NCBI GenBank assembly: GCA_963676395.1
Contig: OY781066.1
Span: forward strand, 928,001-992,000
From: a bacterium
GTDB taxonomy: Bacteria > Fidelibacterota > Fidelibacteria > Fidelibacterales > Fidelibacteraceae
Length of the DNA stretch: 64,000 nt
Direction: 5' to 3'
The notes beneath the pieces were generated by a model. The model did no database searches, was not told the origin of the DNA, and was given only the letters and a program-made list of their open reading frames with translations. Shown one piece after another: positions 9,982-11,977 of the stretch; positions within the stretch are counted from its first letter, which is position 1, and the number at the start of each line of letters is the position of its first letter. A program made the translations under genes and the position numbers.

Positions 9982-10230
9982 TTATGAATTATCTTTGGTA
10001 TAACCGAAAATATAACCAGCAATTGCTCCTAAAACACCAAAAGCAGGAGCTAAATCAAGAGAATTATCGGGATACAAAGCAACCAACACAATAAATCCAC
10101 TAATAATTGTAATTCCATAAACTTTTAAGTTAAATGGACCAAAACCTGGCTTCATCTGTTTTTTAAGAAATATTATTGCAACTATTTCAATAACCACAAC
10201 TGCAATCAAAACGAAGTAATACATATGCAT
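9982..10230 (-). CDS. Small hypothetical membrane protein (about 3 TM)
   Basis: Three hydrophobic segments; LGAIAGYIFG; RBS-like GGGGA upstream. Confidence 0.6.
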   Translation of the reverse strand: MHMYYFVLIAVVVIEIVAIIFLKKQMKPGFGPFNLKVYGITIISGFIVLVALYPDNSLDLAPAFGVLGAIAGYIFGYTKDNS

Positions 10231-10803: not shown

Positions 10804-11126
10804 TTCGGTCTCCTTGCTATAAGGTTAACGTTTATGCGTAAATAAAATCACCTTAACATAAACTTGCCATTGCTTCATCTCTTCTCCTTTTTTCCCACGC
10901 TAATCAGCTGATATTAAGTTAGAAACAAAATACCGTATTATGCAAATAATAATATTATTTTTTTGTATTTTTACCATATAATGCATTTGTATTACTTTTT
11001 ACTATGATGGCAAATTCATTGTAGTATTTATACACTATGTTGCAGTAAGCAAAGTGATAATTCCAAAAACATTGCTCTATTCAACCCCTTCAGGCTTGAA
11101 TATAATACTGGATAAGGTGGACGCGG

Positions 11127-11154
11127 TTGACATTGTAAGCAATTGGGCTATTTT
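11127..11154 (+). promoter_or_regulatory. Sigma-70-like promoter TTGACA-N16-TATTTT
   Basis: Perfect -35 at 11127-11132 and a -10-like hexamer at 11149-11154, directly before the structured element. Confidence 0.45.
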
Positions 11155-11160
11155 ACATCA

Positions 11161-11355
11161 TCGTTACCGACTAACACGGACGCTCCCGGACGCGCAGCCG
11201 CTTTTACAGGTCGGTGGGAGTTTGTCTTGGTCTGTGTTAATCATTTGTACATGTTCTGGGCTAAATCTCCCAGAGATATTTGCTGTAAGGAACGGTCCAG
11301 TCTACGCTACCCTAGAGTATCCGGGCGCCTGACATGGCTCGACCGTTCTATACAG
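11161..11355 (+). ncRNA. Putative structured non-coding RNA of unknown class
   Basis: Three stems visible: 11172-11181/11230-11239 (with inner 11182-11187/11216-11221), 11255-11260/11269-11274 and 11283-11297/11341-11355. G-U pairs favour the + strand. Confidence 0.5.
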
Positions 11356-11365
11356 AGTGCTTAAT

Positions 11366-11977
11366 TCATTTGCGCCTTTCGGAGCGCACCCTATATATTC
11401 TTTCGGTAAAACCGCCATGCTCCTCGAAGTCGCTGGTGAGGTGATTGATTTGTTTTTGGAGAAGAAATTGGGAAACGGTTATTAATGTAATTGCTGCATT
11501 TGCGGCCATTTCGGGGTAGACTGCAGTGGACACTGTGGATTTGGTGGATGTTTGGCCGCTCGCTTTACTAAGTCTATAGCGTCCACTATTGTCCACGACC
11601 CACTGAGCAACTTCATCTGCAGTTTTACAGCGAGCATCTACCAGATTTTGTCTAAAGATATCATCTCTTTCCCAAAGCTCCAAGCCTCTCTGCCTCAAAT
11701 AATCTTCATAGTCTAATTTCAGTTCTTCCAAACTGGCGCGCGCAACATTGGTAAGTTTAATTTCGAATTTCTTGGAGGTACCTGAGGCTTCTGAGCCTTC
11801 GGCAATATTTTGCACACCCGAGCGAGCGGCTTGTACCATTTGGTCGTGAGTGCGACTGCGTATTGATATGTAATTATCGCAAAATCGCACGGTGATATCG
11901 TAAACCAATCGAGCCAATTGAAACGACTTTAGTTTTCGGTAACCGCCATACTTGGGCAATAAAGGTTCCTTTGCCAT
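11366..11977 (-). CDS. Four-helix-bundle protein (23S rRNA IVP-like) with four-helix-bundle suffix domain
   Basis: GGYRKLKSFQ, RSRTHDQMVQAARSGVQNIAEG, LTNVARASLEELKLDYEDYLRQ; suffix AANAA...F..HGGFTERIYRVR. Confidence 0.9.
   Translation of the reverse strand: MAKEPLLPKYGGYRKLKSFQLARLVYDITVRFCDNYISIRSRTHDQMVQAARSGVQNIAEGSEASGTSKKFEIKLTNVARASLEELKLDYEDYLRQRGLELWERDDIFRQNLVDARCKTADEVAQWVVDNSGRYRLSKASGQTSTKSTVSTAVYPEMAANAAITLITVSQFLLQKQINHLTSDFEEHGGFTERIYRVRSERRK

Follow-up and report, generated by a model that had tools for sequence, protein, structure and literature searches.

We examined the non-coding block at positions 11108 to 11360 of a 64,000-nt window (the whole stretch of DNA analysed here, from contig OY781066.1 of a bacterium of the family Fidelibacteraceae). 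The block lies beside a minus-strand gene (11366-11977) for a four-helix-bundle (4HB) protein with a suffix domain. A sequence-only reading had taken it for a single orphan non-coding RNA of the plus strand, pseudoknotted or switching between folds. Our results indicated that the block is probably the composite 3' flank of the 4HB-suffix gene cassette, made up of three separate hairpin pieces, and not a single RNA gene. The searches returned no Rfam family and no homolog of the block as a whole, and its strongest stem proved to be a dispersed palindrome found across the genus. The RNA-gene candidate at 11108-11360 should be set aside.

Read from the gene outwards on the minus strand, the first piece (hairpin 3) is a long-form copy of an element that resembles repetitive extragenic palindromes (REP). 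It lies directly past the stop codon, where it would be transcribed at the 3' end of the 4HB mRNA. Its most likely role would be that of a 3' hairpin, a stabiliser or a weak terminator. The second piece (hairpin 2) is a small hairpin whose origin we assign to no family. The third (hairpin 1) may represent the cassette's own boundary or a relic palindrome, and the REP-like element, which belongs to the host genus, would have been inserted later between the gene and hairpin 1. Removing the 81-nt REP-like element would put hairpin 1 about 40 nt past the stop codon, much as at a homologous locus (L080). As judged by sequence comparison, the family membership and the positions of hairpins 3 and 1 are established; we infer the minus-strand transcription and any function of hairpin 1. 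The features concerned are as follows.

11078-11102, minus strand: 10-bp hairpin followed by AGAGCAATGTTTTTGG, found as an inverted-repeat pair
11127-11154, plus strand: promoter-like site TTGACA-N16-TATTTT, probably a chance occurrence
11166-11245, strand not assigned: hairpin 1, in which phased ..GGAC / GTCC.. units form a decayed palindrome, matched by the linker profile
11254-11275, strand not assigned: hairpin 2, with a 7-bp stem and an 8-nt loop, without a match in any search
11279-11359, minus strand: hairpin 3, a long-form, genus-specific REP-like or terminator-like palindrome, 6-16 nt past the 4HB-suffix stop codon
11366-11977, minus strand: gene for a four-helix-bundle protein with suffix domain, 203 aa, matching TIGR02436, TIGR04258 and PF05635
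11516-11596, minus strand: the linker of this 4HB gene, in which GTGGAC / GTCCAC units make up a weak inverted repeat with 30-nt arms that are 70% complementary

Structure and composition of the block

The stems, the promoter-like site, the GC-rich stretch, the crossing pairs and the short gap to the gene, all of which had been picked out by inspection, were found in their places. In hairpin 1, the stem TAACACGGAC/GTCTGTGTTA pairs 11172-11181 with 11230-11239, and the GCTCCC/GGGAGT pairing was confirmed, as was TCTGGG/CCCAGA in hairpin 2 (11254-11275). The outer stem CTGTAAGGAACGGTC/GACCGTTCTATACAG of hairpin 3 spans 11283-11355, and its end lies 10 nt from the stop codon of the minus-strand gene. 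Both 6-nt crossing pairs on which the pseudoknot was based exist. By our own arithmetic, chance alone should give about five perfectly complementary 6-mers in a 200-nt sequence (~200^2/2 pairs / 4^6), and the two crossing pairs fall within this expectation. The ACCGAC/GTCGGT pair can also be explained by shifts of register among the phased repeats of hairpin 1.

The GC content of the block is 0.47-0.52, against 0.26-0.33 in the left flank. Across the genome (2,335,625 bases, 38% GC), its peak of 0.525 ranked 13th among 472 stretches of at least 200 nt free of open reading frames (ORFs), tied with ranks 10-12. The 30 most GC-rich of these stretches comprised 12 with tRNA, two with rRNA, one with a cobalamin riboswitch and 15 without explanation, the block among the last. 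Half of the top peaks are thus known RNAs, so that the GC signal gives a fair prior for an RNA and nothing beyond that. Two side observations concern the remaining stretches: the top-ranked one (GC 0.605; G000:C1:1684267-1684986) has no tRNA or Rfam match, and four GC-rich ORF-free stretches without either kind of match cluster within 12 kb past the end of the window (G000:C1:999715-1012048).

Past the gene, the minus strand carries in turn the REP-like element (11359-11279), hairpin 2 (11275-11254), the GGAC palindrome (11245-11166), an AT-rich spacer and an operon with a DUF2188 gene. The spacer (11102-11060) contains the 10-bp hairpin and a T5 run. Judged from its sequence, this hairpin may mark where the 4HB transcript actually ends; the terminator scan passed over it, as stem and T-run do not adjoin.

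The absence of a credible ORF, which had been asserted, was borne out. The plus-strand ORFs of 92 and 73 aa had no relatives in a word-indexed protein search and no paralog in their own genome. A phmmer search of 1.84 billion representatives gave five matches at E <= 0.001, to long proteins aligned in 5-9 stretches. The two that were compared (P0121 and P0122) were unrelated repeat proteins scoring about 25 bits per repeat, and we rejected the matches as artefacts of summing weak alignments to long proteins.

Searches for RNA families and for homologs of the block

No match to Rfam 15 was found at the gathering cut-off in the whole window. The search covered riboswitches, small RNAs (sRNAs), C4-type antisense RNAs, group II intron RNAs and RNAs associated with insertion sequences. 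At E values up to 10, the block matched only two microRNA families, mir-881 (18.5 bits) and mir-278 (14.7 bits), at E 1.2-1.9, which is noise. The suggestion that the block is a leader like phage P1 c4 or P4 CI, left without its gene, thus gained no family match even at E 10. The BLAST search of phages returned seven records with 40-nt matches at E = 1 in tail-fibre genes, which we took as noise.

A BLAST search of its own genome with the block returned only the block itself, and the plasmid search returned no match. Two metagenome pattern scans with exact stretches of hairpin 1 gave no match in either case. A covariance-model search of 149 relatives found no homolog of the whole block, and the single BLAST match among 60 relatives was 60 nt of hairpin 3 in one genome (G006).

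Hairpin 3 belongs to a genus-specific family of palindromes

We built a covariance model, R1, from the block sequence alone. Its matches in two relatives (G006 and G015) covered hairpin 3 only, and both lay right after the stop codons of unrelated genes, a gcvPB-like gene in G006 and a gene for a protein with a type IX secretion system tail in G015. A second model, R2, was built from the three hairpins of the window, G006 and G015. R2 matched 10 of the 21 other genomes of the genus, with 1-8 matches per genome, and none of the 18 genomes outside it. On hairpin 3 itself, R2 scored 75 bits on the minus strand and 21 bits on the plus strand.

The family occurs in two forms. The short form reads TGTA[AG]GGAACGGTC-NN-GACCGTTCC[CT]TACA, with arms of 9-14 bp and a 2-nt spacer. 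The long form holds a nested inner hairpin, and the copy in the window is a long form of 61-81 nt. In the outer stem, double changes that keep the pairing were seen among 30 non-redundant elements (A-T 21 / G-C 6, G-C 24 / A-T 4 and T-A 22 / G-C 3). The genome of the window contains 20 short-form matches, and 16 of its 17 pattern matches are intergenic. Around the 22 intergenic elements, a gene reads into the element within 300 nt in 20 cases, and 13 of these 20 have a T-rich tail on the strand of the gene. Seven of the 16 long-form matches lie between co-directional genes. The strand of the model, which corresponds to the minus strand of the window, was the strand of the genes in six of the seven; the exception (L156) is a weak match of 20.7 bits.

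Most copies begin with GTA[AG]G, and C/TTAC at the opposite end is the counterpart of this tag, so that the two can pair. The genome has four matches to PF01797, the Y1 transposase family, and the GGAACGGT core was found within 1.2 kb of none of them. Conversely, none of the 30 loci fetched around copies of the repeat contained a Y1 gene. As a separate observation, one Y1-transposase gene (200267-200611, in G000:C1:199400-201000) stands amid many copies of a different palindrome, GTCCCnTAGGGAC and then ..ATCTTTGTAG, which by its sequence looks like a classic arrangement of REP with a REP-associated tyrosine transposase (RAYT).

We rejected two related candidates. Hairpin 1 is not a second REP-like member, since R2 scored below 5 bits there. 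The arms of attC sites follow the consensus RYYYAAC/GTTRRRY, and the arms of hairpin 3 were judged by eye to misfit it.

Hairpin 1 resembles the linker palindromes of 4HB-suffix genes

When R1 was run over 84 four-helix-bundle loci, 13 matches were obtained at E <= 1, and 12 of them fell on the linker that joins the bundle to the suffix domain (L069, L036, L074, L068, L067, L073, L046 and L048 among the loci). The thirteenth was a second copy in L074. The matched linkers form a long palindrome of phased CACGGAC ... GTCCGTG units, and that of L069 folds at -61.5 kcal/mol over 117 nt. Direct comparison of the block with the linkers had been marginal (best BLAST E 0.008 over 28 nt; local alignment z about 2.6), and the early marginal BLAST and tblastx matches arose from this same linker signal.

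We then took 10 linker palindromes, all from other phyla, and made an nhmmer profile of these only, with the window sequence excluded. Searched against the 2.34-Mb genome at E <= 10, the profile gave two matches, both at 11166-11245, with E 4.2e-5 (23.1 bits) on the minus strand and E 0.0038 on the plus strand. Hairpin 1 lies 121 nt past the only intact TIGR04258-family gene of the genome. The proposed link between the block and the 4HB gene held to the extent that hairpin 1 is kin to palindromes in and beside 4HB-suffix genes; this is an association of sequences, and the binding of the protein to RNA found no evidence in it.

The profile also found copies outside linkers, 19 nt after the stop codon in L080, on both flanks of the gene in L063 and, in L074, about 900 nt downstream. 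Units of the gene's own linker recur in 14 of 74 loci, either immediately upstream of the gene, in its C-terminal tail or immediately downstream. The second palindrome of L074 (3915-4019) is a strong one of linker type (65 bits), about 900 nt behind the first, and may be part of a diverged tandem second gene. In 37 of 40 genes, which are kin to each other, the two linker arms agree in unit type (T with A, C with G). Against simple shuffles, the linker palindromes had z < -2 in 22 of 29 cases, with a median of -3.8.

A bolder reading would join these observations. The 4HB-suffix protein and the GGAC-phased palindromes of linker, flanks and hairpin 1 might form one portable module, in which the protein recognises the hairpins as DNA or RNA. 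Such recognition would control the expression of the module or move or process the cassette, by analogy with Avd and the RNA of diversity-generating retroelements (DGRs) or with the stem of ORF-bearing rRNA intervening sequences. We regard this as unlikely on present comparisons. If it were true, the earlier idea of a partner for the 4HB protein would be correct in kind, but this nucleic-acid partner would be the repeat module and not a 200-nt pseudoknotted RNA.

Promoter and folding signals of the block

The promoter-like site matches at 10 of 12 positions. In 1.5 kb, three such sites were observed, against 4.0 +/- 1.8 in shuffled sequence, and the site at 11127-11154 is probably a chance occurrence. 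Inspected by eye, several of the 33 tRNA upstream regions carry TTGAC/TTGCA-N17-TATAAT-like motifs, which makes promoters of sigma-70 type plausible in this organism. A search of public sequencing runs listed no RNA run.

Folding was compared with that of shuffled sequences. The whole 216-nt block gave z = -1.65 on the plus strand and -2.49 on the minus strand. Without hairpin 3 (11161-11282), the values were -1.66 and -2.42, and hairpin 3 by itself gave -2.05 and -3.34. The minus strand, which is the strand of the 4HB gene, therefore folds more unusually than the plus strand in every segment tested, contrary to the earlier argument that G-U pairs favour the plus strand. The expectation that the block would fold better than shuffled sequence was borne out modestly, and not more than modestly for the block as a whole. 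In the terminator scan, hairpin 2 with the following ATATTTG scored as terminator-like on the plus strand, and no minus-strand terminator was found at the block.

These data bear on a narrower form of the RNA reading, in which a strain-specific plus-strand sRNA starts near 11161 at the promoter-like site and runs for about 115 nt, as far as hairpin 2, or for about 200 nt, as far as hairpin 3. Such an sRNA would be antisense to the 3' tail of the 4HB mRNA and would regulate it through base pairing. The promoter-like site, the sigma-70-like look of the tRNA upstream regions, hairpin 2 with its AUAUUUG on the plus strand and the GC peak, with 15 of the top 30 peaks being known RNAs, could be taken in its favour. 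Against it, promoter-like sites were no commoner than in shuffles, the plus strand folded less unusually than the minus strand throughout, both large hairpins are accounted for as repeat copies with relatives in other contexts, and the block is not conserved. On balance, the promoter-like site is the one feature that favours this sRNA, which we consider distinctly unlikely.

Weighing of the composite flank and its alternatives

Several results weigh against the composite-flank reading. As to hairpin 1, its unit is C[AC]CGGAC, as opposed to GTGGAC in the linker of the neighbouring gene; the profile match is moderate (23 bits), and the linkers in the profile are related to each other. The linker of the window's gene is itself only weakly palindromic (z = -1.09 under synonymous-codon resampling), and upstream of the gene there was neither a palindrome (z = +1.18) nor a match to the linker profile. 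Under the same resampling, the linkers at large had a median z of only -1.6 (28 of 77 below -2 and 16 of 77 below -3), and their minimum free energy per nucleotide was -0.333 compared with -0.310 in a control segment. As to hairpin 3, the tail of the window copy, TTACAGCAAATATCTC, has three T in its best eight positions, and this copy, having no T-run, is not a canonical terminator. No tyrosine transposase gene adjoins any REP-like copy examined. Hairpin 2 stays without explanation, with no relatives in any search, and the plus-strand promoter-like site resembles, by eye, the type that the organism seems to use.

Alternatively, hairpin 1 could be the last remnant of a deleted second 4HB-suffix gene of the CGGAC-linker type, with the rest of the block being decayed foreign DNA without function. 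The 4HB-suffix genes of two other members of the genus (G001 and G016) do carry CGGAC/GTCCG linkers, weak local alignments of the block hit the linker in G016, and the GC content of the block is foreign to its surroundings. A relic of a 4HB-suffix gene also exists elsewhere in the genome: a 31-aa ORF, MGMKMSKDKLITKHGGFTERMYSIRLKRKNK (G000:C1:1584321-1584416; L169 1465-1560), joins the N- and C-terminal ends of a 4HB-suffix protein, is internally deleted and is followed by GTCC-phased units. The units behind this relic also speak for the tie between hairpin 1 and the gene family in the composite-flank reading. However, no trace of a 4HB or suffix domain was found beside hairpin 1. A six-frame search with protein profiles recovered only the end of the real gene, and a DNA profile of 79 genes gave no match; we accordingly rejected a pseudogene at the block. 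Similar repeats lie outside intact genes in L080 and L063, so that an extragenic position need not mean gene decay. The remnant reading is, in our judgement, rather improbable.

A third alternative is that chance produced the stems other than hairpin 3 in a variable intergenic spacer, and that hairpin 1 looks like the linkers only because GC-rich hairpins happen to resemble one another. We hold this to be very unlikely: the modest z scores of 11161-11282, the marginal direct comparison with the linkers and the original choice of the region for its visible stems would suit it, but a profile blind to the window picked out only hairpin 1 on both strands of 2.34 Mb, next to the sole intact gene of the family in the genome.

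The 4HB-suffix gene and its neighbourhood

The gene at 11366-11977 was identified by profile match as encoding a 4HB protein with the TIGR04258 suffix domain. At least 8000 relatives were scored, and the best 120 of 8000 showed 61-74% identity and came from many phyla. In its own genome, one gene only exceeded the cut-off for the suffix domain. Plain four-helix-bundle (TIGR02436) matches there number nine, and two of the nine contain internal stops. Within the genus, the suffix gene has a patchy distribution, occurring in 5 of 21 other genomes. No mention of 'four helix bundle suffix' or TIGR04258 was found in the literature searched.

We fetched 80 homolog loci, in 76 of which the 4HB-suffix gene is complete. 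The downstream DNA of 81 homolog loci showed no likeness to the block apart from short linker matches, and an Rfam search of 20 of the loci gave no match. DNA identity of 80-91% was seen downstream of the gene across phyla. This conserved DNA is where a type I methylase gene (hsdM) begins, and we therefore rejected a conserved RNA element behind 4HB-suffix genes. A type I restriction methylase (HsdM-like) gene adjoins the 4HB-suffix gene in 11 of the 80 loci, for example in L013 (3190-4100), L005, L046, L041 and L016, and an HsdR-like gene lies upstream in six.

In two relatives within the genus (G002 and G020), the gene has the same position beside sigma and anti-sigma genes, and the downstream DNA differs from that of the window. 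In G020, 255 nt separate the 4HB-suffix gene from the SRAP gene that follows it. Relative to G020, the window contains in addition a membrane-protein gene, a PD-(D/E)xK-like gene, the DUF2188 gene, the AT-rich spacer and the block, and no convincing direct repeats flank this extra segment. Inspection by eye showed that the 255-nt spacer behind the G020 ortholog (L088) consists of 9-nt phased ATCCTGTnn units. Behind the G002 gene (L085), a GTAGGGGCTCGAC..GTCGAGCCC palindrome with a T-run is followed by repeated CTTCGCTAAAGCTTC modules, which, again by eye, resemble the inner hairpins of some long-form repeats.

The PD-(D/E)xK-like gene (171 aa), so called from our reading of a D...EIK motif and without a Pfam match, has relatives in 3 of 400 other genomes of the phylum and in none of the genus. 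Inverted repeats of 17 nt, 94% complementary (10214-10230 and 10981-10997), bracket this gene and the DUF2188 gene, and by their sequence the two may be a small acquired cassette. A tie between the block and this DUF2188 and nuclease-like cassette was rejected, since the three cassette relatives lack the block.

Implications

In an AT-rich genome, an intergenic block rich in GC and in stems can turn out to be a stack of repeat elements. A REP-like or terminator-like family confined to one uncultured genus and without a visible transposase is a case in point for the open question of how repeats spread. What is new here is that, in the TIGR04258 sub-family, phased repeats run through the coding linker between two domains. 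The link between gene and palindrome is the part worth following: the 4HB-suffix protein, 65-73% identical across many phyla, has no known function, and finding a nucleic-acid site cognate to it would offer a direct way into that function.

Comparison with known systems

Phage P1 c4 and P4 CI are small antisense RNAs, and Rfam has a C4 family. The block resembles them in the proposal of a small structured RNA that follows a promoter, and differs in having no Rfam match, no target and no leader arrangement.

Avd is a four-helix-bundle protein linked to the template RNA of DGRs. The likeness is that a four-helix-bundle protein of the same superfamily is encoded beside a non-coding element. Unlike a DGR, the block has no second copy, as template or variable repeat, in the genome or the window, although no search aimed at a reverse transcriptase was made, and 4HB-suffix loci adjoin a type I restriction methylase gene instead (11 of 80). 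ORF-bearing intervening sequences of 23S rRNA have a gene of the PF05635/TIGR02436 family with a hairpin-forming stem. The window differs in lacking an rRNA context, as judged with Rfam. A stem that pairs both flanks of the 4HB gene, as in such an intervening sequence, was rejected because the inverted-repeat search found none.

Like a Rho-independent terminator, hairpin 3 has a GC-rich stem right past a stop codon, and T-rich tails are common among the gene-adjacent copies of its family. It differs in that the window copy has no T-run and in that the stem sequence is common to unrelated genes, unlike that of ordinary terminators.

A further likeness is to REP and to bacterial interspersed mosaic elements (BIME), whose GTAG-tagged super-family is described as short palindromes repeated genome-wide outside genes (Di Nocera et al. 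2013, PMC3733652), with a REP copy number given as usually above 100 per genome (Nunvar et al. 2010, PMC2817692). The family of hairpin 3 likewise consists of short, genome-wide, extragenic palindromes, which for the most part follow coding regions and lie between genes that are co-directional or convergent. It starts with GTA[AG]G and is plausibly transcribed as RNA hairpins. In size, the short forms fall within the 20-40 bp of REP, and the window copy is longer. The family differs in having only about 20-22 copies in 2.34 Mb, in being confined to one genus among the genomes searched, in that its GTAG-like end can itself pair and its long form has a nested inner hairpin, and in that none of the copies examined has a Y1 or RAYT-type gene next to it. 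Form, position and the GTAG-like end fit REP, whereas the copy number and the missing Y1 gene do not, and we therefore call the family REP-like or terminator-like rather than a member of REP.

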